Assembly: GCA_016935525.1 (NCBI GenBank)
Contig: JAFGQU010000017.1
Span: 9,559 to 73,558, forward strand
Source: Candidatus Omnitrophota bacterium
GTDB lineage: Bacteria; Omnitrophota; Gorgyraeia; Duberdicusellales; 4484-171
Direction of reading: 5' to 3'
DNA length: 64,000 nt
The translations under genes and the position numbers were made by a program. The notes under the pieces are model-generated. The model ran no database searches, was not told the origin of the DNA, and saw only the letters and a program-made list of their open reading frames with translations. This document shows, piece after piece, positions 3,108 through 60,708 of this stretch. Each line of letters starts with the position of its first letter. Positions within the stretch are counted from its first letter, which is position 1.

Positions 3108-3141
3108 TCTCTAACCGCTAGCCGCTGAACGCTATCCGCTA
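3108..3141. repeat. family E (TAGCGGnTAGCG-type) half-element overlapping the last codons of the response-regulator gene
   Basis: ctctaaccgctagccgctgaacgctatccgctattc. Confidence 0.6.
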
Positions 3142-4512
3142 TTCGGCCACTTCTATTCCGTACTTTTTCATCAGATCATAAAAGGTCGGGCGGGTAATAC
3201 CCAGCATTTTTGCGGCAAGGGTCATGTTATTTCCGCTGTCGGATAACGCTTTCTTGATCAGATTGATCTCTAACTCCTGCCGGGCATCTTTTAAGTTAAG
3301 TTTCTCTTTCGCGTCATCGAGTTCATTTTCTTTCCCGAACCCCAGCTCCTGCGGGGTAATCAGGGAGTTTTCCGCCAAGATCACCGCGCGCCTGACTCTA
3401 TTTTCCATCTCACGGATGTTTCCCGGCCAGACGTAACTTTTGATAAAATCTTTCGCTTCTTTAGAAAACCCTTTTATGTCTTTATTGACCGCTTCCTGAC
3501 GGTAATGCTGGAGGAAATGTTTTGCCAGGAGATAGGCATCATCACCTCGTTCCCGCAGGGGCGGCAGTTCGATATTGATCACGCTTAACCGGTAATACAG
3601 GTCTTCCCGAAAACTGCCGTCTTTGATCTTTTTCTTCAGATCGCAATTAGTCGCGACGATCACCCGCACGTCAAGTTCAAGCGGAATATTTCCGCCGACC
3701 CGTTCGATCGTCCGCTCCTGCAGGAACCTTAATATCTTTACCTGCAGGTTAAGGCTCATCTCGCCTATTTCATCCAGAAATACCGTACCGCCGTGGGCGG
3801 CTTCCAATTTTCCGATACGTTTTACGTGCGCGTCGGTAAAAGAACCTTTCTCATGGCCGAACAATTCGCTTTCCAACAGGTTCTCCGGTATCGCGCCGCA
3901 ATTGATGACCATAAACGGGTTCTCGTTACGCGGACTCAATTGATGAAGCGCCTGAGCTACCAATTCTTTACCGGTCCCGCTTTCCCCGGTGATCAATACC
4001 GTCGCGTCGGAAGGCGCGACCCGGCGGATAAGTTTAAAGATATCCTGCATTTTGGGCGAATCACCGATCATACTCTCGAACCCGCCGGCAGTATGGATCT
4101 CTTCATTCAGCCGTTTATTTTCTATTTCGAGTTCCTGCATATGCAGGGCCCGGCGAAAAATGATCTTCAGTTCGTCGATATTTACCGGTTTCAAATAATA
4201 ATCGTCCGCGCCCCTGGTGATTGCCTCCAGAGCCAGTTCTTTTGAATCGTTACCGGTGATCATGACCACTTTCAGAAAAGGGTTGTCGGTTTTAAGCGCT
4301 TCCAGGATATCCATCCCTTCTTTGTTACGGAAATTAGCGCCGTCAAGGTTGATATCTAACGCGAGCAGGTTCGGACGGATCTCTCGCGCGATCGCGAGCG
4401 CTTGCTCTTTGGACGTCGCGGTTTCTACTTCATACTCATCTTGAAGCGCCCATTTAAGCTGTTTCAGTATTCCCTCGTCGTCGTCTACGATCAGGATCTT
4501 CGCTCTTTCCAT
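3139..4512 (-). CDS. sigma-54-dependent response regulator (NtrC family; candidate PEP-CTERM-box regulator PrsR)
   Basis: N-terminal REC domain (ILIVDDDEG...D). AAA+ sigma-54 activator motifs GESGTGKEL and ESELFGHEKGSFTDA. C-terminal Fis-type HTH. Confidence 0.9.
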   Translation of the reverse strand: MERAKILIVDDDEGILKQLKWALQDEYEVETATSKEQALAIAREIRPNLLALDINLDGANFRNKEGMDILEALKTDNPFLKVVMITGNDSKELALEAITRGADDYYLKPVNIDELKIIFRRALHMQELEIENKRLNEEIHTAGGFESMIGDSPKMQDIFKLIRRVAPSDATVLITGESGTGKELVAQALHQLSPRNENPFMVINCGAIPENLLESELFGHEKGSFTDAHVKRIGKLEAAHGGTVFLDEIGEMSLNLQVKILRFLQERTIERVGGNIPLELDVRVIVATNCDLKKKIKDGSFREDLYYRLSVINIELPPLRERGDDAYLLAKHFLQHYRQEAVNKDIKGFSKEAKDFIKSYVWPGNIREMENRVRRAVILAENSLITPQELGFGKENELDDAKEKLNLKDARQELEINLIKKALSDSGNNMTLAAKMLGITRPTFYDLMKKYGIEVAE

Positions 4513-4522
4513 TGTTACACTC

Positions 4523-4559
4523 CTTTAAGTCACATAGACACAAGGTCACAAGTCACACG
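4523..4559. repeat. family A arm (left arm of cassette 1)
   Basis: aagtcacatagacacaaggtcacaagtcacacgtcat. Confidence 0.75.
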
Positions 4560-4910
4560 TCATAAAACATGATAGAACTTCCACAGTAAAGACCCAACTT
4601 GTTTCCTTGCTTTTTCTATATTAGTATATTCTTCATCTCTTAAATAATTCATTTCTTTAGAAAATTCCAGCAGATATTCTGTTTCGAATAAGGATCCTAA
4701 GGCAACATTGGCAAATTGGTTCAGTTCCCTTTTACCCTGTCTACCTGTCCCTTCGACAATATTTGTCGGGATAGACAAAGCCGCTCGGCGCAACTGAGAC
4801 GTAATACCGTATATTTCTTCTTTAGGAAACTGTTTAGTAATCATATAAACTTGTTTTGCCAATTCATTTGCCTTTTGCCAAACTAATAATTTCTTATATC
4901 CTTTCTCCAT
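4560..4910 (-). CDS. four-helix-bundle protein (23S rRNA intervening-sequence protein family, PF05635/TIGR02436; Avd-like), copy 1
   Basis: 116 aa and basic. Family hallmarks W-x-KA...FPK-EE-Y-L-SQLRRAA-SI--NI-EG. About 78% identical to copy 6. Confidence 0.85.
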   Translation of the reverse strand: MEKGYKKLLVWQKANELAKQVYMITKQFPKEEIYGITSQLRRAALSIPTNIVEGTGRQGKRELNQFANVALGSLFETEYLLEFSKEMNYLRDEEYTNIEKARKQVGSLLWKFYHVL

Positions 4911-4963
4911 CGCCCTCTCCTTTCTTTTTCCTGGGCGACATTCGGTTAAAACCTTCCCATCTC

Positions 4964-5013
4964 TGCGTGTGACTAGCCTGCCATAAGGCAGGCGTGTGTC
5001 ATGTGTCGTGTGA
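4964..5013. repeat. family A arm (right arm of cassette 1) with internal GC hairpin
   Basis: gcgtgtgactagCCTGCCataaGGCAGGcgtgtgtcatgtgtcgtgtgac. Confidence 0.75.
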
Positions 5014-6990
5014 CTTTGATGCGGGCATTTCTATCGTAAACGCAGTCCCTTCTCCGGGAACACTTTCTGCCCGCATCGTACCCCCGTGAGCTTCAATGAT
5101 CGTTTTACACTGATAAAGGCCGACGCCTAATCCTTTCTCTTTGGTCGATTGAAACGGCCGGAATAAATGGTTATCGATAAATTCTTTGCTCATACCGCAT
5201 CCGGTATCCTGTATCTTCAGCGATACGGTATTATCGCCGGTTTCGGCCTTTATAGTAAGCGTACCTTTAGTATCCATCGCTTCTATCGCGTTGAGGATCA
5301 GATTGGCTAATACCTTATTGATATAATGGGGATCGGCATCGATAATACCGCCGGGCGCGCATTCTTTGACGACTTCGATGCTCTTAAACCGGTTTTGCCC
5401 GAGCTCCGCGAGCGCCTCATCCACCAGACCGGATACAGCGCAGGGCCGCTTCTGGAGCTGCAGGTCGCCCCGTAAGGCGCGGAACTCTTCGATCAGTCTT
5501 TTCATCTTTTCGATAGTATGTTCAAGCGTGAATAACGCGTCTTTCTGGAATTCGGGATTATCGAATTTATCTTTATTCGCCGATAACATCGAGAGGTTGT
5601 TCACGTAATTTTTCACGTCATGGATGATGAATGAAGAAAGCTTATACAGCGATTCCTTTTTTTCCGCTTCCCGGATCTTCTGATAGGCGAGACAGTTCAC
5701 GATCACACTGGACGCCTGTAACGATAACAATTTAAGAAGTTCCGAATCAAAAAACACTTTCTTTTCAAAATCCAATCCGATGATCCCGATGACTTTTTTA
5801 TCTCCGTATAACGGGGAAACTATCTCCATGTGTTGCGCGTGAAAAAAAGCCGCCGCGCGGGGATATTTATCGCCTAACCCGTTATATAACGTATCGGACA
5901 GGTTAAACGGCGCGGCTTTACGGAGCATCCAATCATAAAATTCCGCTTCAAACGGTATCTGCGCGCCGAAGATGATCACTTTGACCAGACGGGCGTCCAT
6001 TATGTTTTTTACCGCGCGCTCCAGCTTCTCTTCGATCTGGGGCAGTTCGGTGACCAGCGATATCTGGTAGGTGAAATCTTCCCACAATTTCTGCCAATCA
6101 TAGGTCTGCCGGGTAACACTGCGTAAAAAGAAATATTTTATCCGGTCTTTTACGGCCGAAGAGAACACCAGCACGAAAAACACGATGACCAGGAATAATC
6201 CGGTGAGGACCGAGAACAGCACGTTCAGGTTCCAGCCGAACACCTGGAATATCTTGATAAACGCGCCGATAAAAAACAGGTACCCGCCGATCATCGATAA
6301 TGTCAACGAAGTATTCACGGCGGTGTCTTCTTTGACCATCTCGGCCGCGATCCCTCTCCGCGAAAGCGCCAGATAACATGCCGCGCCGATAAAGATACTT
6401 ACCGAAGAATAGAAAAAAATGTCCGCGTTTATGGTTTTAAACAAAAACGCGTAGGTCGCTAAAAACAGGTACGGTACCAATATGAACAACGTCCCCAGGA
6501 ACAATACGCGCACGTATTTTCTACGGCTAAGGGTCATGCTTCGTTCAAGATTGGAAAGGGTAAACGCGAGATTGATGATGAACAGAATAGAAAAATACTG
6601 GGCAAGATGAGAAAGAATAACCACAGAATCATGTTTCTCAAAATAAACGGCAGGATGGATCCATAAAATAAGGAAAAAGATAAGCCCGGCAACACCCAGT
6701 ATCGGCGCAAGGATCATACGGTACATAAATTTCTTTTTCACCGGCAATATCCCTATACTGAAAATAAACCATACAATCGGGAGAATAAACAAGCCGATAC
6801 CGAACAATACGCTCTGGTGAGCCCCTTCCAGGAAAGAAAGCTTGGAACACTCGATGACGGCTACGCTCAAAAGAGCAAACCCCGCAAGGAGATTCGCGAT
6901 ATGCCGACGACGCAGAAAATTATACGCCGCGACGATCAACAATACGACATTGATCCCGGGTACATAGGTAAAAATAAGATTATTGATCAT
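4999..6990 (-). CDS. sensor histidine kinase with large multi-TM N-terminal domain (candidate PrsK-type)
   Basis: At least 8 predicted TM helices in the first 280 aa. HisKA H-box HDVKNYVNN. HATPase_c G-boxes DTGCGM and GLGVGL. Confidence 0.85.
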   Translation of the reverse strand: MINNLIFTYVPGINVVLLIVAAYNFLRRRHIANLLAGFALLSVAVIECSKLSFLEGAHQSVLFGIGLFILPIVWFIFSIGILPVKKKFMYRMILAPILGVAGLIFFLILWIHPAVYFEKHDSVVILSHLAQYFSILFIINLAFTLSNLERSMTLSRRKYVRVLFLGTLFILVPYLFLATYAFLFKTINADIFFYSSVSIFIGAACYLALSRRGIAAEMVKEDTAVNTSLTLSMIGGYLFFIGAFIKIFQVFGWNLNVLFSVLTGLFLVIVFFVLVFSSAVKDRIKYFFLRSVTRQTYDWQKLWEDFTYQISLVTELPQIEEKLERAVKNIMDARLVKVIIFGAQIPFEAEFYDWMLRKAAPFNLSDTLYNGLGDKYPRAAAFFHAQHMEIVSPLYGDKKVIGIIGLDFEKKVFFDSELLKLLSLQASSVIVNCLAYQKIREAEKKESLYKLSSFIIHDVKNYVNNLSMLSANKDKFDNPEFQKDALFTLEHTIEKMKRLIEEFRALRGDLQLQKRPCAVSGLVDEALAELGQNRFKSIEVVKECAPGGIIDADPHYINKVLANLILNAIEAMDTKGTLTIKAETGDNTVSLKIQDTGCGMSKEFIDNHLFRPFQSTKEKGLGVGLYQCKTIIEAHGGTMRAESVPGEGTAFTIEMPASKSHDT

Positions 6991-7963
6991 TTTTTTTATC
7001 TCTGTTCCGGTTTACATACCAGGTAACCATTCGTTTCAATCCTTCCCGCAATTCTATATTCGGCACAAACCCGTCCTGACGGATCTTTTCGGACTTAAAA
7101 TGGGTCGGGGTATTGAATTTTTTAATACGGTAGGCGGTAATAGGGAAATTTATACCGGTGATCTTTCCCAGTATATCGAATATCCCGGCAAAGCACATCG
7201 TCGGCTCAAGCGGCAATCGGCACCGTAACGGCGGATAGCCCAAATGTGTGAGGATCGTTTTTACGATATCGATCGTCGTCATCTGAGGATAATCGGAATA
7301 ATTATACACGTTCAAACCCGGCCCTATACGGTTCATGGCAAAGACGGTCGCATCGACGAGGTTTTCGACATACGCGATAGATTTTATATTTTTGCCGGGC
7401 CCGACAAAAATAAACTGTTTTTTAGCGATCGAGTTTATAAGATTATACATGTTCGCGTAATTTTCCGGTCCGAATACCACCGCCGGGCGGATGATCACCG
7501 CGCTACGTGAGGGGTCCTGTAATACCCAGCGTTCGACAGCGGCTTCCGCGGCAAGTTTCGATTCTCCGTAGGGGCTCACCGGGAACGGCGAAACTTTTTC
7601 ATCAACCGGTACGGTCGCATTTCCGTATACCGCGACCGTACTGTAAAAAATGATCTTTTTAATACCCTCGGCTTCCGCGCGCTCGAGGATAGTACGGGTA
7701 CCCTCGAGGTTTACCCGAAAAAACTCATCCCGCGATACCCCGAAATCGTGATGGGCCGCGGCAAGATGGATGACCATATCGCATCCGGAAAGGACATCGC
7801 CTACCGTATCCCTATCAAGCAGGTCCCCTTGCCGGAAACGGGTAAGACCGCTTCCCGGGTAAGATTCCCGGTCCAGCCCGCTTACGGCATGGCCGTTACT
7901 CGCTAAAGCCTTTACCATGAACTTTCCGATAAATCCCGAAACTCCGATTACAGCTATATTCAT
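6980..7963 (-). CDS. NAD-dependent epimerase/dehydratase (SDR family)
   Basis: N-terminal GVSGFIGK Rossmann motif. YGESK catalytic Y-x3-K. Confidence 0.8.
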   Translation of the reverse strand: MNIAVIGVSGFIGKFMVKALASNGHAVSGLDRESYPGSGLTRFRQGDLLDRDTVGDVLSGCDMVIHLAAAHHDFGVSRDEFFRVNLEGTRTILERAEAEGIKKIIFYSTVAVYGNATVPVDEKVSPFPVSPYGESKLAAEAAVERWVLQDPSRSAVIIRPAVVFGPENYANMYNLINSIAKKQFIFVGPGKNIKSIAYVENLVDATVFAMNRIGPGLNVYNYSDYPQMTTIDIVKTILTHLGYPPLRCRLPLEPTMCFAGIFDILGKITGINFPITAYRIKKFNTPTHFKSEKIRQDGFVPNIELREGLKRMVTWYVNRNRDKKNDQ

Positions 7964-9157
7964 TTATTGCGCTCCGGTCTCTTCTCTCAATATTGTAATC
8001 GCCGCCTCCCGATGAGAGGGGCAACGAAGTGTGTTTAAATAAGGCAGCCAGAACTTTTTGTTTCTACGTACGAATATTTCCGGCAAAAGTTTTCGACGGT
8101 TAAGCTTTCTGAATATCCACGGCGCGTTCATCAAGGAAAGCAGATAGCCTTTACGCACATTTTGGCACACTTTTTTCCATTCCTGCTCTATCTTTTGAGG
8201 ATCGGAGATCGTTTCACAATAAGAATCTATGTTACGCCAATACTCTTTCTCTTCTTCTTGAGACATTAACCGTACCCCAGTAAACCCTTTATTCTGAAAA
8301 TAAGGATATAATTGGGCCTGTTTCACTTTATCGCCGGCAATGATCAATTTGATAAAATATCCCTGGTACCATAACGGCGATTTTCGTTTACCCAGATCAA
8401 ATATAAAATTACCGAGATTATAGAATATCGGCACCCCATGGTAATATTCATACCCGCTGGCGCAATGCGCGTGATGCCCGATTATGGCGGTTACTCCCAA
8501 ATCGGCGAAAAACCGGTACGTCTTCATCATATCCGGACTGGGGAGCGGGTGATATTGATATCCGCCATGGATGACCACCAACTGGATATCGGAATGTTTC
8601 TTTATCTCCCTGATCTGATAATAGTTCAAAACCGTATCCAGCGGCGCGGCTCCCGGCCTATTTTCGGCCGCGATACTGAATTCCTGTTCGGCGACATTGA
8701 GGACCGCGATACGTTTCCCTTTCACTTCCAGATATAAAGGTGTACACGCCGCCTTGAGGTTCTCCCCTATCCCTACGGTTTTGATATTGTTTTGCCGGAA
8801 GATATCCAGTGTCGAACGGATACCGTCAGCCCCCTGGTCGAAGATATGGTTATTGGCTAACGTCACGGCATCAAACATCCCGTATCTTAACGCTTCGATC
8901 ACACCGGGGCCAGCATAAAGGTTCATGCCGGTCTTGGATATCGGACGGACATTTTCGATCAAAGGACATTCAAGGTTCGTGATCGAAATATCTTTATCCT
9001 TCAATACCGGTAAGACATCGTTGAATATTTTTTCGTATTCTTTGTGTTCACAACATTCCTCAATCACTCCTCCGGGATAAAAATCACCGGTCACGATGAT
9101 CCGGATATCCTCCTGATTTCGGCCGGTAGTATCGCTTAAAAAAGAAACTGTTTTCAT
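7964..9157 (-). CDS. CapA/PgsA-family capsule biosynthesis protein (metallophosphatase-like)
   Basis: About 400 aa with a LANNHIFDQGADG-type motif and histidine-rich metallophosphatase blocks. Confidence 0.65.
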   Translation of the reverse strand: MKTVSFLSDTTGRNQEDIRIIVTGDFYPGGVIEECCEHKEYEKIFNDVLPVLKDKDISITNLECPLIENVRPISKTGMNLYAGPGVIEALRYGMFDAVTLANNHIFDQGADGIRSTLDIFRQNNIKTVGIGENLKAACTPLYLEVKGKRIAVLNVAEQEFSIAAENRPGAAPLDTVLNYYQIREIKKHSDIQLVVIHGGYQYHPLPSPDMMKTYRFFADLGVTAIIGHHAHCASGYEYYHGVPIFYNLGNFIFDLGKRKSPLWYQGYFIKLIIAGDKVKQAQLYPYFQNKGFTGVRLMSQEEEKEYWRNIDSYCETISDPQKIEQEWKKVCQNVRKGYLLSLMNAPWIFRKLNRRKLLPEIFVRRNKKFWLPYLNTLRCPSHREAAITILREETGAQ

Positions 9158-19190: not shown

Positions 19191-19207
19191 AAAATTAAGG
19201 TCACAAG

Positions 19208-19468
19208 GTCACATAGACACATAGTCACAAGTTGAAGGTCACACGTTGCACGACACATAGTCACACGACTCCTCTCAGGATTTCTACAATACGAGATGCT
19301 GCTTTGCCATCCCACACACAAGTCACAACGTCACATAGACACATAGTCACAAGTTGAAGGTCACACGTTGCACGACACATAGTCACACGACTCCTCTCAG
19401 GATTTCTACAATACGGGACGCGGCTTTGCCGTCCCACACACAAGTCACAACGTCACATAGACACATAG
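19208..19468. repeat. tandem 122-bp direct repeat (2.1 units), each unit a family-A arm plus a degenerate copy of the last ~17 codons of wecB
   Basis: Unit starts at 19208, 19330 and 19452. ORF 19261..19443 encodes ...WDGKAASRIVEILRGVV, which mimics the wecB C-terminus WDGKAAQRIVEILKGDM. Confidence 0.8.
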
Positions 19469-20674
19469 TCACATGTCTCCTTTTAAAATCTCCACAATGC
19501 GCTGGGCCGCTTTCCCGTCCCATAAAGAAAGAGAAGGTAGCATTGCCGGGGGATTGTCAAGAATACGCATAGCATCGGTAATTATTTTCTCTTTATCACA
19601 ACCGACGATGATATTAGTGCCGGCATCGACCGTGATCGGCCGTTCGGTGTTCTCGCGTAACGTAAGACAGGGCACGCCTAAAACCGTGGTCTCCTCCTGC
19701 ATCCCGCCGGAATCGGTGAGAACCAGACGCGCTTCACTCATGAGTTTCAAGAAATCCAAATAGCCCAGAGGGTCTATTTGGATTAATCCATAGTCCATAG
19801 TCCGTAGTCCGTGGTTTATTTCTCCTTCTTTTCTCCATTCACGTGTGACTATGTGACTTCCCCGTTCCATAATATTTTTATACAGCGGGGTCCCGCTTAG
19901 ATATGTACATATCGGTGCGGGATGTGACTTTGTGACCTTTGCCAGAGCTTTGCGGGTACGGGGGTGGACGGGAAAGATCACCTTAATATGCCGGGATATC
20001 TCCTCTATTGCCTCCATTATTCCCTCTAAAACTTCGGGGTCGTCGACGTTTGAGGGACGATGCAGGGTCAATACCGCGTATTCTTTGGGTTTTATCCTAA
20101 GATCCTCTACTATTTTGGAATTTGCAGCTTGCTGCTTGTGCCTTAACAAAGTATCAATCATGACATTCCCCACAAAATAGATCTTATCTTCATTTACTCC
20201 TTCCCGAAGCAGATTTTCTTTGGCATCGGGTTCGGTCGTAAAAAGGTAATCCGAAATTGCGTCGGTCAATACCCGGTTGATCTCCTCCGGCATCGTCCGG
20301 TCGAAACTGCGCAGGCCCGCCTCGACATGAGCCACTTTTACGCCTAATTTAGAGGCGACCAGGGCGCAGGCAATAGTGGAATTCACATCACCAACGACTA
20401 CTACCAGGTCCGGTTTTTCTTTTATCAATACCGGTTCAAACCGTTTCATGATTTCGGCGGTCTGGGCCGCGTGAGATAAAGAACCGACCTCTAAATTGAT
20501 ATCCGGTTTAGGTATCCCTAATTCATCAAAAAACAGTTTTGACATCTTCTCGTCATAATGCTGGCCGGTATGGACAAGTACCGCTTCTATCTCGGGATGT
20601 TTTTTGTATTCATCCATGAGCGGCGCTATTTTCATGAAATTTGGTCTTGCCCCCGCCACATTAATAATCCTCAT
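19469..20674 (-). CDS. wecB: UDP-N-acetylglucosamine 2-epimerase (non-hydrolysing) carrying a ~43-aa in-frame insertion derived from a repeat element
   Basis: HTGQHYD ... LVVVGDVNST ... TDSGGMQEE epimerase_2 motifs. The insertion is encoded by 19790-19935. Confidence 0.9.
   Translation of the reverse strand: MRIINVAGARPNFMKIAPLMDEYKKHPEIEAVLVHTGQHYDEKMSKLFFDELGIPKPDINLEVGSLSHAAQTAEIMKRFEPVLIKEKPDLVVVVGDVNSTIACALVASKLGVKVAHVEAGLRSFDRTMPEEINRVLTDAISDYLFTTEPDAKENLLREGVNEDKIYFVGNVMIDTLLRHKQQAANSKIVEDLRIKPKEYAVLTLHRPSNVDDPEVLEGIMEAIEEISRHIKVIFPVHPRTRKALAKVTKSHPAPICTYLSGTPLYKNIMERGSHIVTREWRKEGEINHGLRTMDYGLIQIDPLGYLDFLKLMSEARLVLTDSGGMQEETTVLGVPCLTLRENTERPITVDAGTNIIVGCDKEKIITDAMRILDNPPAMLPSLSLWDGKAAQRIVEILKGDM
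19790..19935. repeat. composite family C + family A + AGCGGGACCCCGCT/TATAAAAAT sub-element inserted in-frame in wecB
   Basis: Reverse complement of 19830-19935 aligns at about 85% to 57555-57660. ccatagtccatagtccgtagtccgtgg at 19793-19820 is family C. Confidence 0.75.
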
Positions 20675-20689
20675 TATGTCCTCCTCAGT

Positions 20690-20765
20690 AATATTACAAA
20701 ATTACAAATTACAATAAACAAACTACAAACAAAAAGAAGAATAAACAAATCACAAACAGAAATAA
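20690..20765. repeat. family B (ATTACAA/ACAAACAA units) arm, left of cassette 2
   Basis: attacaaaattacaaattacaataaacaaactacaaacaaaaag... Confidence 0.55.
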
Positions 20766-20767
20766 TA

Positions 20768-21121
20768 CTATTTTGATTTATCAATAATAGCCGTAAAAAT
20801 ATTCCTAATCTCCTTGGATTCTTTTATATTAACGTTAATCTTATCCATAAACTCTTCACCGACTTCTTTTAAAAGTTCTAACCAGTATGAGCTTTCTTTA
20901 CATTCCTTTCTCGCGATCCGCATCCTATGGATAAAATCTTTTTTACTTAACTTTTCATTTGCTTCCCGGTAATTTGCTCCGACAGAACCGGATGATCGTA
21001 TCAGTTGGCTGATAATCTTTGAACTGATTACACTCTTAGGCAACATCTTGCATAACTTGATTACATCTTTAGCAAATTCAAGGGTTCTTTTCTCTAAATC
21101 GTATGGTTTATTTGCATCCAT
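20768..21121 (-). CDS. four-helix-bundle protein (PF05635/TIGR02436), copy 2
   Basis: 117 aa with the family pattern (FAKDV..LCKMLPK ... SQLIRSSGSVGANYREA). Divergent from the other copies. Confidence 0.8.
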   Translation of the reverse strand: MDANKPYDLEKRTLEFAKDVIKLCKMLPKSVISSKIISQLIRSSGSVGANYREANEKLSKKDFIHRMRIARKECKESSYWLELLKEVGEEFMDKINVNIKESKEIRNIFTAIIDKSK

Positions 21122-21165
21122 GTTTATCTCATTTGTAATTTGTATATTGTCTATTGTTTATTTCG
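21122..21165. repeat. family B arm, right of cassette 2 (inverted: ttgtaatttgtatattgtctattgtttatt)
   Basis: Reverse complement gives aataaacaatagacaatatacaaattacaaatg. Confidence 0.55.
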
Positions 21166-40158: not shown

Positions 40159-40572
40159 TTAATAGCGGTTAGCGGATAGCGGTGAGCGATTAGAATCAGA
40201 TTCTTGCTCATCACTAAACTTCCCTATTCTCTTAACATACGTCATCAATAATTTTATAACCTCAGACAATAGACTTATTGCCTGATCATACTCTTTCTGA
40301 TTGCACAAGCTGATATCTTTGCTTAAAGACAATTGAGTTTCCAGCTCAGCACAAGACCCCAACGCGATTTTGAGAAACTGAATATATTCTTTTGAACCAC
40401 GCATATACCCTTCAGCGATATTTGAAGGGATAGATATAGCTGAACGTCTTATTTGTGATGTCATCGTATACATTTCGTCTTTAGGGAATTTTTGAGTCAT
40501 TTTATAGATCATAATGACTAAATCGTAAGATTTTTGATATGCCCCTAATTCTTTATAACTTTTTATTTTCAT
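40159..40572 (-). CDS. four-helix-bundle protein (PF05635/TIGR02436), copy 5, with repeat-encoded C-terminal tail
   Basis: 137 aa. LGAYQKSYDL ... FPKDEMYTMTSQIRRSAISIPSNIAEG. Confidence 0.8.
   Translation of the reverse strand: MKIKSYKELGAYQKSYDLVIMIYKMTQKFPKDEMYTMTSQIRRSAISIPSNIAEGYMRGSKEYIQFLKIALGSCAELETQLSLSKDISLCNQKEYDQAISLLSEVIKLLMTYVKRIGKFSDEQESDSNRSPLSANRY
40160..40215. repeat. family E arm, left of cassette 5
   Basis: aatagcggttagcggatagcggtgagcgattagaatc. Confidence 0.7.
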
Positions 40573-40584
40573 CTTTTTCTCGCT

Positions 40585-40680
40585 TCTCTATCCGCTAATC
40601 GCTATACGCTAGCCGCTATTTAAGCGCGTAGGGCAGAGTAGCGAACGAGCCGCCACTCCGCCACTACCGCTGTATTCACA
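40585..40680. repeat. family E arm, right of cassette 5 (plus GCCACTMC units)
   Basis: tctctatccgctaatcgctatacgctagccgctattt is the reverse complement counterpart of the left arm. Followed by gccactccgccactaccgc. Confidence 0.7.
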
Positions 40681-41497: not shown

Positions 41498-41556
41498 GGT
41501 TTAGTCTCTGGTCTCTGGTCTCTGGTCTCTGGTCTCTGGTCTATAGTCTACCGCCT
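41498..41556. repeat. family D-type perfect tandem (GGTCTCT)x5 followed by ggtctatagtctacc
   Basis: ggtttagtctctggtctctggtctctggtctctggtctctggtctatagtctaccgcc. Confidence 0.8.
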
Positions 41557-44071: not shown

Positions 44072-44347
44072 TTTAAGAAAAACGCAAACAATAGCTAATA
44101 AGTCATTGCGAACGAATGAGTTATAAAAAATATATTTTGTAAGCGCTTTCAGAGGTATTTTGAGGGGCCTTTAGAGAAGCTGTTTTTGTTTAAAAAAATG
44201 GATATATTCACCATATATCAAGCCGAAATCCATGGCTATATCTACAAGCATTTGCACATCAATAGGTTATAAACGTCGCTTTTCAAGGACACACTGTCTA
44301 AAAAGATGGACACATTTCCCCGCCGAAAAGATTGATTCCGGCGGGGA

Positions 44348-44477
44348 GTCACAAAGTCACATAGACACATAGTCACACGTACGCCTTTTCGGCAAGTCAC
44401 AAGGACACAAAGTCATACATATTCGGTTTCACGTGTGACGTGTGTCGTGTGACTAGCCTGTCAACAGACAGGCGTGT
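44348..44477. repeat. family A solo hairpin (long loop) followed by GC hairpin GCCTGTCaacaGACAGGC
   Basis: Left arm 44348-44380, right arm 44431-44453. The loop shares attcggtttc with the 57640 copy and cggcaagtcacaa with 57530. Confidence 0.8.
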
Positions 44478-44487
44478 GGCTTATACT

Positions 44488-46794: not shown

Positions 46795-46810
46795 CTACAA
46801 AGATATATTC

Positions 46811-47045
46811 ACCACAGAGATCACGGAGTCCACAGAGAAGATACAGAGGATATTTGGTTTCCTTCATCGTTTCTCGATGGAGCATCTTCGCGAAAACAGC
46901 CGAGACGGAAAATATAATTTTCCGGTTCGATCTGATATTCGCGAAAGACGGCGCTTGCATATTTGAAAGCGCGAAACCAAATATCATGGATCTCGTCGGA
47001 TCTAAAACTCTCATTCTCACTCCGTGCCCTCTGTGTCCTCAGTGG
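46811..47045. repeat. family G (CACAGAG-type units) inverted arms enclosing a ~160-bp core
   Basis: Left accacagagatcacggagtccacagagaagatacagagg. Right ctcactccgtgccctctgtgtcctcagtgg. Confidence 0.65.
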
Positions 47046-47115
47046 TTAAAAATCCTTCTGTTAATATCTTCTTAGAATAATACATATTCGGGAAGTAGAA
47101 ATGTTTTATTTAGAA

Positions 47116-47832: not shown

Positions 47833-47844
47833 ACCGATTGAAAG

Positions 47845-47940
47845 TCACATAGACACATAGTCACATGGTCACACGTTAAAACCCAGAAAACATTATTTCT
47901 TTCCCCCGCGTGTGACGTGTGTCGTGTGACGTGTGACATG
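47845..47940. repeat. family A solo hairpin between hisB and hisA
   Basis: agtcacatagacacatagtcacatggtcacacgt, loop 33 nt, gtgtgacgtgtgtcgtgtgacgtgtgacatgt. Confidence 0.8.
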
Positions 47941-47943
47941 TAA

Positions 47944-48602: not shown

Positions 48603-48688
48603 TCGCAAGTCACATAGTCACAAGGTCACATAGTCACACGTAGGAAAGGGAATCTTACGTGTGTCGTGTGACGTGTGTCGTGTGACTC
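48603..48688. repeat. family A solo hairpin between hisD and hisB
   Basis: agtcacatagtcacaaggtcacatagtcacacgt, loop 15 nt, acgtgtgtcgtgtgacgtgtgtcgtgtgactc. Confidence 0.8.
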
Positions 48689-55520: not shown

Positions 55521-55630
55521 TTCCAAGGGAACCTTATTATACCGTGCAAAAAATACAATGTCAAAAATCCAAAATAATGTTTATTTACAGTATTCAGGAG
55601 ATGGATTTTCACAGAACGAATACGTTTTAA

Positions 55631-55885
55631 ACCACGGAGGGCACTGAGACCACAGAGAGTATTCGAGGTTATTTCTCGTTATTTGAAAAAATCTGTAATG
55701 CTCAAATCGCTCATAGAGCGTTTTGATTCAAGGCACACAGGGCGTGGGAATAAAAAGATTATTTTATTTCTCCGCCCTGCGCGCCCTGAATTTCTCTGCG
55801 AGATATTTATCGCAGGGAAATTACAGATTTTCTCCTCTGTGTACTCTGCGCGCTCTGTGGTTGAATCTCTTTGGTACACACAGAT
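55631..55885. repeat. family G inverted arms enclosing a ~170-bp core
   Basis: Left accacggagggcactgagaccacagagagtat. Right ctcctctgtgtactctgcgcgctctgtggttgaatctctttggtacacacagatatc. Confidence 0.65.
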
Positions 55886-55911
55886 ATCTTAGATCCTCTA
55901 GTTTATAAGTT

Positions 55912-57068: not shown

Positions 57069-57076
57069 ATACTATA

Positions 57077-57130
57077 GGTCACACGCTTGTCTATCGACAA
57101 GCAAGTCACAAGGTCACATAGTCACACGGC
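57077..57130. repeat. family A half-element with a perfect internal hairpin GCTTGTCtatcGACAAGC
   Basis: ggtcacacgcttgtctatcgacaagcaagtcacaaggtcacatagtcacacgg. Confidence 0.75.
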
Positions 57131-57185
57131 ATCTAAATTGCGTAACCGTAGGATGTAGACCGATACGGGTTTCGTTACCATTAGA

Positions 57186-57491
57186 TTAGTTGCTTTTATT
57201 GCCTATCAATTCAAGCGATGTCCCATCATACGGACAATATTCCAGAGAAGAAGTGAATCTTCTGCCGCAGACCGGACAGAATTTTTTCTCTAATTGTTCA
57301 CCGACTACCGCACCGGTCACGGCTCCCACACCGGCCCCGATAGCGGCTCCTTCGCCGGTATGTCCGGATTGGTGTCCGATAATCGCGCCTAACGCGCCGC
57401 CGGCAACGGCACCGGTTCCGGCTCCTCTTTGCACAGTAGTACATCCGGCTACAAGCATACAGATCAATACAAATAATGCGATTTTCTTCAT
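57186..57491 (-). CDS. glycine-zipper lipoprotein with C-terminal zinc-ribbon
   Basis: Start moved to MKKIALFVLICMLVAGC, which gives a lipobox. GxxxG-rich segment GAGTGAVAGGALGAIIGH ... and CPVCGRRF ... CPYDG. Confidence 0.55.
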   Translation of the reverse strand: MKKIALFVLICMLVAGCTTVQRGAGTGAVAGGALGAIIGHQSGHTGEGAAIGAGVGAVTGAVVGEQLEKKFCPVCGRRFTSSLEYCPYDGTSLELIGNKSN

Positions 57492-57554
57492 TGTCTCCTC
57501 CTCTTCTTGCCTGCTTCGCAGGCAGTCAGGCATCTGCCTTCGGCAAGTCACAAT

Positions 57555-57700
57555 GACACATCCCGCACCGAGATTTTTCTTATCCAGCGGGACCCCGCTG
57601 TATAAAAATATTATGGAACGGGGAGGTCACATAGGCACACGTATTCGGTTTCACGTGTGACGTGTGACGTGTGTCGTGTGACATGTGACGTGTTTTACTC
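57555..57700. repeat. composite family A element containing the AGCGGGACCCCGCT palindrome + TATAAAAATATTATGG sub-element
   Basis: 57560-57660 is about 85% identical to the reverse complement of the wecB insert. Right arm acgtgtgacgtgtgacgtgtgtcgtgtgacatgtgacgtgt. Confidence 0.8.
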
Positions 57701-58270
57701 CAGCATGGTGACCCGTTGAGGCGGCCACCAGATAAAAAGAGCTTTTCCGACCACATCCTGTTCGTCAACAAACCCCCAGAACCGGCTGTCTAAAGAAGCA
57801 TAACTATTATCACCTAACGCAAAATATTTCTCCTGGGGGACGACGATCACAGCGCCTTCTTTACCATAATCACCTTGATTATAATAAAAATTGCGGGCCA
57901 CCCGGGCATCAGTGACAAGGGTCCCATTACGGTACACATTGCCTTCTTTAATCTCTATGGTGTCTCCCGGTAACCCGATCACACGTTTAATATAGGCCTT
58001 TTTACGGTCATGAGGCGGGATAAAGACAATAATTTCGTCATGGACGGGGCTGCGCCATCCGGGGATACGTAACGGAGTAAAAGGGATCTTAGGGCCGTAG
58101 GTGACTTTTGAAACAAAGATCTTATCGCCCGGTTTGAGCGTAGGGACCATAGACGTAGTCGGGATCTTATAGATCTGGAAGAAAAACGTACGCAGGAATA
58201 TCGCGATTGCCGCGGCAATGACTATCGATTCGACCCATTCTCTTACAACACCTTTTTTTCTCGTTTCCAT
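57695..58270 (-). CDS. lepB: signal peptidase I
   Basis: SMVPTLKPGD and GDNSYASLDSRFWG boxes. Confidence 0.9.
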   Translation of the reverse strand: METRKKGVVREWVESIVIAAAIAIFLRTFFFQIYKIPTTSMVPTLKPGDKIFVSKVTYGPKIPFTPLRIPGWRSPVHDEIIVFIPPHDRKKAYIKRVIGLPGDTIEIKEGNVYRNGTLVTDARVARNFYYNQGDYGKEGAVIVVPQEKYFALGDNSYASLDSRFWGFVDEQDVVGKALFIWWPPQRVTMLE

Positions 58271-58324
58271 AATATAATAAGATTAACAAATAACTTCTAA
58301 AGGAGCAAGCAAATAATTCCTTAT

Positions 58325-58362
58325 TATAAGTCACAAGGTCACAAAGACACAAGGTCACATGT
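58325..58362. repeat. family A arm (left arm of cassette 6)
   Basis: aagtcacaaggtcacaaagacacaaggtcacatgtc. Confidence 0.75.
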
Positions 58363-58712
58363 CAAAGAGAATGATAAAATTTCCACAATAAAGCCCCGAC
58401 ATGTCTACGTAACATCTCTATTTCACTATATTTATCAGCATTCAAATATCCCATTTCACGGCAAAAATCCAATAGATATTCAGTCTCAAACAATGAGCCT
58501 AAAGCAATATTAACAAATTGCTTCAATTCTCTTTTACCCTGCCGGCCCGTCCCCTCGACAATATTTGTCGGAATAGATAAAACCGCTCGGCGCAATTGAG
58601 AAGTGATTGCATAAATTTCTTCTTTGGGAAATTGTCTAGTAAGAGCATACACCGTCTTAGCCAGTTCATTAGCTTTCTGCCAGGCTAATAATTTTTTATA
58701 CCCTTTCTCCAT
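58362..58712 (-). CDS. four-helix-bundle protein (PF05635/TIGR02436), copy 6
   Basis: 116 aa. About 78% identical to copy 1. Confidence 0.85.
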   Translation of the reverse strand: MEKGYKKLLAWQKANELAKTVYALTRQFPKEEIYAITSQLRRAVLSIPTNIVEGTGRQGKRELKQFVNIALGSLFETEYLLDFCREMGYLNADKYSEIEMLRRHVGALLWKFYHSL

Positions 58713-58747
58713 CGCCCAACTCCTTTCTTCTCCTGGGCGATCTCTGT

Positions 58748-58792
58748 ATTTTTCACATGTGACTTTGTGACTATGTGACGTGTGACCTTGAT
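58748..58792. repeat. family A arm (right arm of cassette 6)
   Basis: cacatgtgactttgtgactatgtgacgtgtgacctt. The reverse complement ends ...gtcacatgtg, like the left arm. Confidence 0.75.
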
Positions 58793-60588
58793 TACATTTT
58801 CAATACTTCCCAGAACGCTTCCTGAGGCACCGTTACCATACCGATCTGTTTCATCCTCTTTTTCCCTTTTTTCTGTTTTTCCCACAGTTTGCGTTTTCGG
58901 CTGATATCTCCGCCGTAACATTTCGCGGTTACGTTTTTCTTTAAAGCCGATACTTTTTCGGCAGCGATGATCCTTGCGCCAATACCGGCCTGAATACTCA
59001 CCTCATACATCTGACGGGGAATAAGTTCTTTCAACTTTTCTACTACCCCCCTGGCTTTCGTATACGCTTTCTCTTTATGGACTATCAGCGAGAACGCCTC
59101 AACCGGCTTCTTATTCAAAAATAAATCTATCTTCACGATTTCGGTTTTACGGTATCCGATAAATTCATACTCAAAGGAAGCATATCCTTTACTGGCCGAT
59201 TTAATCTTATCGTAAAAATCTACTATAATCTCAGCCAGGGGGAGTTCAAACACAAGGTTAATCCGGTCTTTCCCCAGATAATCGCTTTTAATAAATTCGC
59301 CGCGACGGGATTTTGCCAATTCACAAATAGCATCCATCGCGTCGATCGGAGTAAGTACCGTCGCCTGGATGTAGGGTTCAAACACTTCCGCGATCTCGGT
59401 CTCTCCCGGTAAATGATGCGGGCTGTCGACGTTGACAGTTTCTCCGTCGGTTTTTTTCACCTGGTACATTACGCTGGGAGAAGTAACGATCAAATCCAAA
59501 GAGAATTCCCGTTCCAACCGCTCCTGGACGATCTCCATATGTAAAAGGCCCAGAAATCCACAACGGAACCCATAGCCTAAAGCCCCGAGGCTATCCGGTT
59601 CAAAGACGAACGAAGAATCTGAAAGATGCAGTTTCTCAATCGCTTCCCGTAATTGCGGATAATCTTTAGGCGCCGTCGGGAAAATACCGCTGAATACCAT
59701 CGGCGACATCTTTTTATACCCTTCAAACGGTTTTTCGGTAGGGTTATCTTTTAACGTAATAGTATCGCCGACATCCACTTCCTGAGGATTTTTGATGTTA
59801 CAGCAAATATAGCCGACATCTCCGGCGCGTAATTCATTCTGTTTAAGCTGTTCGGGGACAAAAAAACCTACTTCTTCTACCCGATAGGTCGCGTTTTTAT
59901 GCATCATCAGAATAGTGTCGCCTACCGCGAGTTTACCGTCAAATACCCTGACAAACACTATCGCGCCTTTATACAGATCAAATACCGAATCAAAAAGGAT
60001 CGCTTTTAACGGTTTGGTTTCATCAGCCGCCGGTGGCGAGATCTCCTTGATGATCCGTTCCATCACCGCTCTTACTCCGGTGCCTTCTTTTGCCGAAACA
60101 TAGGTGACCTCTTCTTCTTTAAATCCGAAGATATCATGCAGTTCCTCAGCGGTCCGTTTACGGTTCGCACTGGGGAGATCGATCTTGTTCCCTACCGGGA
60201 TGATACGCAAATCGTTTTCCAGAGCAAGATAAAAGTTACCCATAGTCTGAGCTTCAATCCCCTGTGACACATCGACCAGCAATAGCGCTCCTTCACAGGC
60301 TTTCAATGATTTTGCTACCTCATAGGTAAAATCGACATGTCCCGGAGTATCGATAAGGTTGAGGATATATTCGTTCCCGTCATCGGCTTTGTAGGTAAAC
60401 CTTACGGCTTTAGCTTTGATAGTGATGCCCCGCTCTTTCTCCAATTCCATGCTATCAAGCATCTGATCGGTAAATTTACGCTTATCGATCGCTCCCACAA
60501 GCTCTAACATCCGGTCGGCAAGCGTAGACTTCCCATGATCAATATGGGCGATTATACAGAAGTTTCTTATGTCCGGACGATTACTCAT
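58792..60588 (-). CDS. lepA: elongation factor 4
   Basis: NFCIIAHIDHGKSTLADR G-domain. 598 aa. Confidence 0.95.
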   Translation of the reverse strand: MSNRPDIRNFCIIAHIDHGKSTLADRMLELVGAIDKRKFTDQMLDSMELEKERGITIKAKAVRFTYKADDGNEYILNLIDTPGHVDFTYEVAKSLKACEGALLLVDVSQGIEAQTMGNFYLALENDLRIIPVGNKIDLPSANRKRTAEELHDIFGFKEEEVTYVSAKEGTGVRAVMERIIKEISPPAADETKPLKAILFDSVFDLYKGAIVFVRVFDGKLAVGDTILMMHKNATYRVEEVGFFVPEQLKQNELRAGDVGYICCNIKNPQEVDVGDTITLKDNPTEKPFEGYKKMSPMVFSGIFPTAPKDYPQLREAIEKLHLSDSSFVFEPDSLGALGYGFRCGFLGLLHMEIVQERLEREFSLDLIVTSPSVMYQVKKTDGETVNVDSPHHLPGETEIAEVFEPYIQATVLTPIDAMDAICELAKSRRGEFIKSDYLGKDRINLVFELPLAEIIVDFYDKIKSASKGYASFEYEFIGYRKTEIVKIDLFLNKKPVEAFSLIVHKEKAYTKARGVVEKLKELIPRQMYEVSIQAGIGARIIAAEKVSALKKNVTAKCYGGDISRKRKLWEKQKKGKKRMKQIGMVTVPQEAFWEVLKM

Positions 60589-60611: not shown

Positions 60612-60708
60612 AAGTCACAAAGTCACATAGACACATAGTCACACGTGAAAAAATATTAAATCTTAATACGTGTGTCGTGTGACATGTGACGTGTGACCTC
60701 CCTTTTAT
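60612..60708. repeat. family A solo hairpin between lepA and cmk
   Basis: agtcacaaagtcacatagacacatagtcacacgtg, loop 20 nt, acgtgtgtcgtgtgacatgtgacgtgtgacct. Confidence 0.8.

Follow-up and report, generated by a model that had tools for sequence, protein, structure and literature searches.

Cassettes of a PF05635 four-helix-bundle gene and paired heptamer arrays between operon genes in an Omnitrophota genome

We analysed a 64,000-nucleotide stretch of the genome of a Candidatus Omnitrophota bacterium (GenBank assembly GCA_016935525.1, contig JAFGQU010000017.1, positions 9,559 to 73,558, henceforth referred to as the window), in which two pairs of genes, lepA and lepB in one case and a histidine kinase (HK) and a response regulator (RR) in the other, are each separated by a short cassette with a small gene of the family PF05635. 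With moderate confidence, we interpret each locus as a promoterless gene cassette of the intervening sequence (IVS) type, made up of the PF05635 gene with its own ribosome-binding site and two complementary arrays of about four repeat units, and operating by the mechanism proposed below. The architecture is very widespread and apparently undescribed, and ties the protein family of the rRNA IVSs to the heptamer repeats of intergenic DNA. From 1993 until as late as 2024 the family was being described as of uncharacterised function (PMC11270868), and the rRNA IVSs that contain it pass for curiosities.

Every gene called in the window is encoded on the minus strand, which makes a 64-kb run on a single strand. 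Cassette 1 (58328-58788, minus strand) is found between the upstream LepA gene (58792-60588) and the downstream gene of an S26 signal peptidase (lepB, 57695-58270), and cassette 2 (4527-5016, minus strand) between a gene for a PEP-CTERM-type HK (4999-6990) upstream and one for a sigma-54 RR (3139-4512) downstream, all four neighbours being on the minus strand as well. These are the identities that a first-pass annotation of the sequence had given to the flanking genes; its coordinates for the cassettes proved correct to about 5 nt. Each cassette contains an open reading frame (ORF) of 116 aa, hb1 (58362..58712, minus strand) and hb2 (4560..4910, minus strand), whose products are 78% identical. 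Both are clear members of the four-helix-bundle family PF05635/TIGR02436. The Pfam profile PF05635 (23S_rRNA_IVP) is matched by hb1 with E 6e-35 and 120.1 bits and by hb2 with E 2e-36 and 124.9 bits (cut-off 33.8), TIGR02436 ("four helix bundle protein") with 110.8 and 114.5 bits respectively against a cut-off of 24, and a profile built from hb1 and hb2 matches PDB entry 2gsc (XCC0516, 5 chains) with E 5e-30.

The ORFs are enclosed by inverted arms (all on the minus strand), which inverted-repeat detection placed at 58330-58366 / 58751-58790 (29 nt, 86% complementary) and 4527-4562 / 4964-5018. They are not plain inverted repeats; each arm consists of about four units in tandem, 7-8 nt long and with GTCACA as the core (period 7-8 and 3.8-4.9 copies by Tandem Repeats Finder). 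The 5' arm of cassette 1 (58753..58788) is a GTCACA-type array of 7-8-mers starting 2-3 nt past the lepA stop codon, and its 3' arm (58328..58366) is a TGTGAC-type array of 8-mers that overlaps the stop codon of the ORF and is followed by a spacer of ~57 nt and the lepB ATG. In cassette 2 the 5' arm (4964..5016) spans the HK stop codon (4999-5001), encodes the C-terminal residues KSHDT of the kinase and holds a nested GC hairpin, GCCTGCC-TTAT-GGCAGGC (4976-4993), while the 3' arm (4527..4562) ends 3 nt ahead of the AAGGAG Shine-Dalgarno of the RR gene. Between 5' arm and ORF, cassette 1 has a leader, CGCCCAGGAGAAGAAAGGAGTTGGGCG-ATG (58710-58739, 0 chance matches expected), containing a hairpin CGCCCA...TGGGCG (58713..58739, minus strand) with an AAGGAG Shine-Dalgarno in its loop and the ATG directly after it; the second copy (4908-4937) has the corresponding hairpin CGCCC...GGGCG (4911..4937, minus strand), also with the Shine-Dalgarno in the loop, and is shifted by 1 nt relative to the first. 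A common leader with a ribosome-binding site between CGCCC and GGGCG had been described before; both copies are indeed there, the consensus being off by one indel.

As predicted RNAs, the two cassettes fold with minimum free energies (MFE) of -141.1 (cassette 1) and -137.5 kcal/mol (cassette 2), at z-scores of -4.76 and -4.34, and 0 of 100 shuffled sequences fold as well. Both the MFE and the centroid structures pair the arms over ~400 nt and place AAGGAG in the loop of the leader hairpin. The claim of the first-pass annotation that each gene pair is separated by a complete four-helix-bundle cassette with both inverted arms is therefore borne out by profile matches, arm detection and folds; that the arms pair in the polycistronic RNA is supported as a prediction, and an independently translatable small ORF by the Shine-Dalgarno site that each cassette possesses. 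Promoter signals at the cassettes were none above chance.

Comparison with other genomes indicates that the insertions are real but old. Some 45 loci preserve the gene order cmk-lepA-lepB-(small glycine-zipper gene)-pgsA, and in most of them (~35 Omnitrophota plus outgroup loci) lepA and lepB overlap or are 0-50 nt apart; two orthologous Omnitrophota loci (L083 and L084) have HK-RR gaps of 1 nt and 16 nt. Since most relatives, including outgroups at lepA-lepB, show such near-empty gaps, the tight junctions are ancestral and both cassettes insertions, in agreement with the earlier statement that these gene pairs normally adjoin. LepA places the organism in Candidatus Omnitrophota, the best relative being at 83% identity. 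The nearest relative, the metagenome-assembled genome GCA_964483625.1, carries a cassette at each of the two junctions, and the arms, the leader and, in the HK-side arm, the nested GC hairpin are the same; the two contigs, CAZABB010000013.1 (L001) and CAZABB010000018.1 (L167), were taken as belonging to that assembly because they share an accession prefix. The ortholog pairs between window and relative have a synonymous divergence (dS) of 0.9-1.0, with a nonsynonymous to synonymous ratio (dN/dS) of 0.08, and the paralogs hb1 and hb2 a dS of ~1.75. The duplication and both insertions therefore predate the split of the two lineages. The first-pass annotation had seen the cassettes as mobile insertions, a view against which orthologous copies at the same sites and a lack of empty sites anywhere would speak. 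Orthologous copies do occupy the same sites in the nearest relative; empty sites are present in most relatives, and two unrelated sites hold copies of the complete unit, from arm through leader and ORF to arm. What had been noticed is thus confirmed as real and correctly described, and the insertion reading as right for an event that is ancient.

The unit common to both cassettes runs from AA(A/G)GTCACA to TGTGACTT. No direct repeat flanks it at either site, so that the target duplications suggested for the insertion boundaries did not appear in the synteny and alignment comparison, and no transposase or integrase is visible, the PF05635 ORF being the sole ORF of the unit. As the low dN/dS shows, the protein is under strong purifying selection. 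Between orthologs the arms differ at only ~4/69 positions, all of them in the spacers between GTCACA cores (our own count on alignment A3), beside a proportion of synonymous differences (pS) of 0.52, and by this measure the arm cores are far more conserved than synonymous sites. The leader is also found in the orthologous cassettes of L001 and L167, and is absent from less closely related members of the protein clade.

Some details of the two junctions deserve mention on their own. The kinase ends in KSHDT before the stop codon in the window (4999-5016) and in KSHDTRHTPT in the relative (L167, 2900-2928), and cassette-less orthologs end differently. The ~29 nt directly 5' of the lepB ATG (TTATTTGTTAATCTTATTATATT-ATG; window 58271-58300, L001 8281-8309) are identical in both genomes despite a dS of ~1. 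They lack a Shine-Dalgarno motif and might serve translation as an A/U-rich element; a look for promoters in this conserved spacer gave nothing convincing, the only candidate being a 9/12 match that would start inside the ORF. In Omnitrophota, insertions recur at the lepA-lepB junction: L015 has a 1.2-kb insert with two small ORFs (7798-9040), L038 a 144-aa ORF (7795-8265), and L002, L008 and L009 an unrelated ORF of ~135 aa that reaches up to lepB (~7795-8260).

Relatives of hb1 also occur at other sites. Proteins 67-83% identical to it, placed in their own contigs, lie at six different junctions: EpsH (exosortase)/EpsI, RnfG/RnfE, an alginate-export gene/GH57, a lipid-A acyltransferase/glycosyltransferase, a cyclase/CO-dehydrogenase flavoprotein and FeoA/FeoB. 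By annotation the contigs belong to Omnitrophota, Actinobacteria, Elusimicrobia and WOR-3, and all of these cassettes have GTCACA/CACAAG arms. With close relatives in at least six other junctions of other genomes, the cassette is an inserted and transferable unit. We scored the sharing of a repeated arm 6-mer for all cassette pairs in different contexts. A common 6-mer was present in 5/5 pairs with at least 80% protein identity and in 25/38 pairs at 65-80%, against a background of 8-10% below 65%. Because the core is kept at divergences where synonymous sites are saturated, it is under constraint. The number of units behaves differently. At the FeoA/FeoB junction of four contigs named WOR-3 (L179-L182), which encode an identical 117-aa protein, the 5' array has ~6, 10, 22 or 0 units and the 3' arm is constant; array length is very labile, with a rapid and one-sided change in copy number. 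In another cassette of the GTCACA type (L176, 1016-1200) the 5' side carries a block of ~40 nt in three tandem copies, each with a full heptamer array, and beyond the next gene lies another PF05635 gene, whose arms are of the AGAGT type.

To assess how general this organization is, a metagenome scan with the six PF05635 proteins of the window (the other four are described below) provided 80 loci (L085-L164), from which 75, together with the six cassettes of the window, were analysed (n=81) for arrays of period 6-9 within 110 nt of the gene. Arrays were present on both sides in 61/81 PF05635 genes and on at least one side in 75/81. Among control genes, only 8/82 other genes of the same loci and 20/739 genes in lepA loci (3-10%) had arrays on both sides. 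About 80% of arrays have a period of 7 and ~18% a period of 8; the median is 4.2 units, and the unit downstream of the gene is in most cases the reverse complement of that upstream. Mismatched pairs of upstream and downstream flanks were a poor background for duplex energies, flavours being shared between loci, and the gene-flank control was used instead. The cassettes are mostly co-oriented with their neighbours (48:7 upstream and 54:8 downstream, 102:15 in total), and the 5' array starts at a median of 1 nt past the upstream stop codon. Loci with the gene also have 3.7x denser arrays elsewhere than loci without it. The organization is found in cultured organisms as well. Homologues on plasmids are nearly all from Nostoc, Calothrix and Trichormus, and in the one case checked, Nostoc punctiforme pNPUN02, the gene lies between (CAGGAGT)n and its complement.

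Across 61 cassettes (L085-L164 and the window) the 5' arm has more G than C in 45 cases and the opposite in 13 (p 3e-7), the GTCACA clade being the exception. The bias is unchanged by reverse complementing and so is a rule of hairpin polarity; we rejected it as strand asymmetry or evidence for RNA. Avoidance of a C-rich Rho loading site as its cause is a guess. Stop codons in three frames do not account for the period of 7-8 either, as they occur in 25/61 of the 5' arms and in 23-27/61 of unit-shuffled arrays. Among individual loci, L111, L106 and L122 have GGGATCA-type arms and a downstream flank that begins with the same ORF start (ATGGCAAACGTACTCGATCTCCGG...), read as a putative atpG start; L111 and L122 share their upstream sequence and L106 differs.

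The closest known counterpart is the IVS of 23S rRNA. In Coxiella burnetii it is 428 nt long and has a stem of 28-bp terminal inverted repeats with the S23p ORF in its loop, tandem GACAGAT heptamers (x3) that vary in number between strains, and a cut by RNase III in mid-stem (PMC4990558). The window cassettes resemble this element and that of Leptospira in that a stem of ~28-30-bp terminal repeats holds a PF05635/S23p ORF in its loop, the arms have tandem heptamers, the total length is ~430-480 nt and the ORF is in the sense of the host transcript. Structurally they share everything with the Coxiella element but its location. Unlike them, they are located between protein-coding genes and not in helix 25/45 of 23S rRNA; no Rfam family, rRNA included, matched anywhere in the window, and with lepA/lepB and HK/RR as flanks we do not class them as 23S rRNA IVSs. 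They also differ from the Coxiella ORF, which is decaying and apparently untranslated, by a good Shine-Dalgarno and the low dN/dS, and their ribosome-binding site lies inside the part that excision would free.

By analogy, we propose that the cassettes work like rRNA IVSs. Each would be transcribed by read-through from the host operon, and base pairing between its arms would give an interrupted stem (~30 bp) that may be cut by RNase III, as has been demonstrated in the 23S rRNA analogue. Cleavage would part the upstream cistron from the downstream one and free a small mRNA with leader and ORF, whose pentameric product might then act on its own heptamer arrays, as RNA or DNA, both in cis and at copies that lack the ORF. 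The outcome could be the spread and maintenance of the element, or control of the flanking transcripts. The arms had earlier been suggested to form a processing site or a terminator, and the former is plausible on this analogy. A bolder generalization, offered only tentatively and in our opinion rather doubtful, would make PF05635 pentamers the sequence-specific partners of their own arrays, an autonomous and non-autonomous pair comparable to the RAYT genes and REPIN elements considered below, with a helical-bundle protein that is not an enzyme; the pair would seed stem-loops across the intergenic DNA of many bacterial phyla, with the ORF-bearing 23S rRNA IVSs and at least part of the heptamer repeats of cyanobacteria and others as its products.

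Several observations weigh against the cassette reading. G.U pairs are as frequent in the sense as in the antisense stems (105 vs 107) and stem energies are equal (p 0.44), so that selection on the sense RNA through G.U pairs finds no support, and the ORF-less hairpins of the window fold slightly better on the antisense strand. The variant L182 keeps an identical ORF without any 5' array, and the stem is therefore not indispensable. The leader hairpin is limited to four closely related cassettes, without covariation, and the unit encodes no mobility enzyme and shows no target duplication. Conservation of the arm cores may stem from the difficulty of altering many paired repeats together and not from recognition by the protein, and we infer RNase III cleavage here by analogy only.

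The symmetry between strands speaks for a role of the arms at the DNA level, a serious rival although we think it unlikely. The arms would then be palindromic elements like the repetitive extragenic palindromes (REP/REPIN), with the four-helix-bundle gene as a partner comparable to the REP-associated tyrosine transposase (RAYT), and hairpins or cruciforms in single-stranded DNA would be the substrate of spread and of changes in copy number, RNA processing being incidental. As in REP/REPIN-RAYT systems, there is a small gene flanked by its own inverted repeat, with many gene-less intergenic copies and a clade-specific flavour. The scattering of ORF-less copies with the same core in gaps, arrays 3.7x commoner in genomes carrying the gene, copy numbers that shift fast (0 to ~22 units with an identical ORF), core flavours that differ at the same junction in close relatives and elements nested in one another all fit. 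The systems differ in that the flanked gene is here PF05635, with no Y1 (IS200/IS605-like) transposase there (the rest of the genome was not searched), that the protein is a helical bundle without known catalytic motif and that the arms are tandem 7-8-mers and not a single REP hairpin. No nuclease or recombinase domain is recognisable in the protein, which matches only PF05635 and, weakly, bAvd; target duplications are lacking, and the co-orientation and closeness to the upstream stop codon fit a dependence on operon transcription.

A regulatory role of the repeats in trans would be distinctly less probable. The protein TRAP binds GAG repeats with one subunit per unit, and by the same principle a PF05635 pentamer could bind the heptamers of mRNAs and tune their translation or stability, the cassette being a domesticated regulator in a trans-acting network and not a selfish element. 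A median of 4.2 units per arm and a pentamer as the solved homologue (PMC4990558) agree with this, as do the dN/dS of 0.08 and the arrays abutting stop codons and Shine-Dalgarno sites of flanking genes, and a regulatory role has been proposed for the intergenic heptamers of Beggiatoaceae (PMC4679880). The correspondence between a pentamer and five repeats is weak, however, as unit numbers are highly variable (2-22, and 0-22 within one population). At least eight flavours and six proteins in one 64-kb window are hard to fit into one circuit, and the flanking genes (lepA, two-component system, exopolysaccharide, atp, rnf, feo) have no functional coherence.

That the arms are mere transcription terminators or insulators, with the ORF as a passenger, is very improbable. 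Long stems between co-directional genes of a 64-kb one-strand run would suit it, but there is no U-tract terminator after the 3' arm of either cassette on the gene strand and terminator-like matches in scans were not above those in shuffled sequences, so that the earlier suggestion of a terminator is unlikely to hold; moreover, the stem would need to close over a translated loop of ~400 nt, and strong purifying selection acts on the ORF, which travels together with its arms. Avd, the accessory protein of diversity-generating retroelements (DGRs), has a homologous four-helix-bundle pentamer fold, binds nucleic acid and works with structured RNA, yet a DGR remnant or accessory gene is scarcely credible here, since the matches to bAvd (27.8 and 26 bits vs 40) and to the NCBIfam Avd model NF033474 (34 and 36 vs 80) fall below the cut-offs, the adjacent genes are housekeeping ones (lepA/lepB and HK/RR), a reverse transcriptase and a pair of template and variable repeats (TR/VR) being absent there, and the phage collection gave no matches. 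PADLOC anti-phage defence models did not match any of the three proteins searched with them.

Returning to the IVS-type cassette, its arms also recall repeats that have been described independently of any protein. Those of cyanobacteria are the short tandemly repeated repetitive (STRR) sequences. Intergenic heptamer repeats have been reported from cyanobacteria and, with TAACTGA as a unit, from Beggiatoaceae and Bacteroidetes, without a link to a PF05635 gene (PMC4679880). Like them, the arrays found here consist of short 7-mers in tandem, occur only in intergenic DNA, abound in certain lineages and come in many flavours; unlike them, which are mainly direct and tied to no protein family, they form inverted pairs that enclose a PF05635 gene or are related to such arrays. 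Among the papers of the library searched, none linked the PF05635 family to heptamer arms outside rRNA. Genes of the family have been found inside cas loci (PMC3936711), which fits a habit of lodging in operon junctions. That the gene is nearly always a unit with inverted heptamer arrays, and that clades keep their own core in unrelated operon junctions, would define a class of elements with thousands of loci, and may explain the presence of PF05635 genes inside cas loci and atp, rnf and feo operons. Annotators should be aware that cassettes of this kind interrupt operons and can append residues to the protein encoded upstream. For Omnitrophota, the window suggests that these elements make up most of the intergenic DNA.

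The lepA-lepB and HK-RR sites are not special, because nearly every gap of the window carries similar inverted heptamer arrays. Tandem Repeats Finder detected 7-8-mer arrays in ~19/28 intergenic gaps longer than 25 nt, and inspection by eye in 26/28; most of the arrays come as inverted pairs separated by a short loop, without an ORF. There are six PF05635 cassettes in all, and the other four, also on the minus strand, each have a different arm unit sequence. The third (20693..21162; ORF 20768-21121) has ATTACAA / TTGTAAT arms, the fourth (34198..34730; ORF 34251-34604) heptamer arms of the GGTCC/TAGAC type, the fifth (36527..36966; ORF 36519-36926) TAGTCTC-type arms and the sixth (40161..40620; ORF 40159-40572) TAGCGGT-type arms, and in the last two the C-terminal tail of the ORF is encoded by its own 3' arm. 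Hairpins without ORF include one of the GTCACA type between cmk and lepA (60612..60697, strand unassigned) and others at 35699-35787, 44347-44480, 47843-47941, 48608-48686 and 57625-57693.

Such ORF-less hairpins turn over quickly. Between the window and its nearest relative, repeat number differs at cmk|lepA and repeat flavour at the junction of lepB and the glycine-zipper gene, pgsA and plsY overlap by 4 nt in the window vs a 153-nt heptamer element in the relative, and RR|BKACE has an extra PF05635 cassette in the relative vs ORF-less arrays alone in the window. The glycine-zipper gene is a conserved host gene (57186-57551, 121 aa) with a faint, sub-threshold C-terminal match to DUF7575. 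It is bracketed on both sides by GTCACA arrays (57069-57694), and the upstream array of the relative is of the TAGTCTC flavour.

More complex arrangements were also seen. At 19197-19477 a 122-nt unit, made of GTCACA-type arrays and ~50 nt of unique sequence, is repeated 2.2 times with 96% identity and extends into the start of the gene at 19469-20674. Two elements (46795-47075 and 55625-55905) have CACAGAG / CTCTGTG arms around ~200 nt without a convincing ORF; homology between their cargos was rejected, the alignment being limited to the arms. Finally, a solo array at 41502-41549, (GTCTCTG) x5.6 with 100% match, has no nearby inverted partner; units of the complementary type are found 4.5 kb away, in an arm of the cassette with the ORF 36519-36926, and the solo array looks recently expanded.

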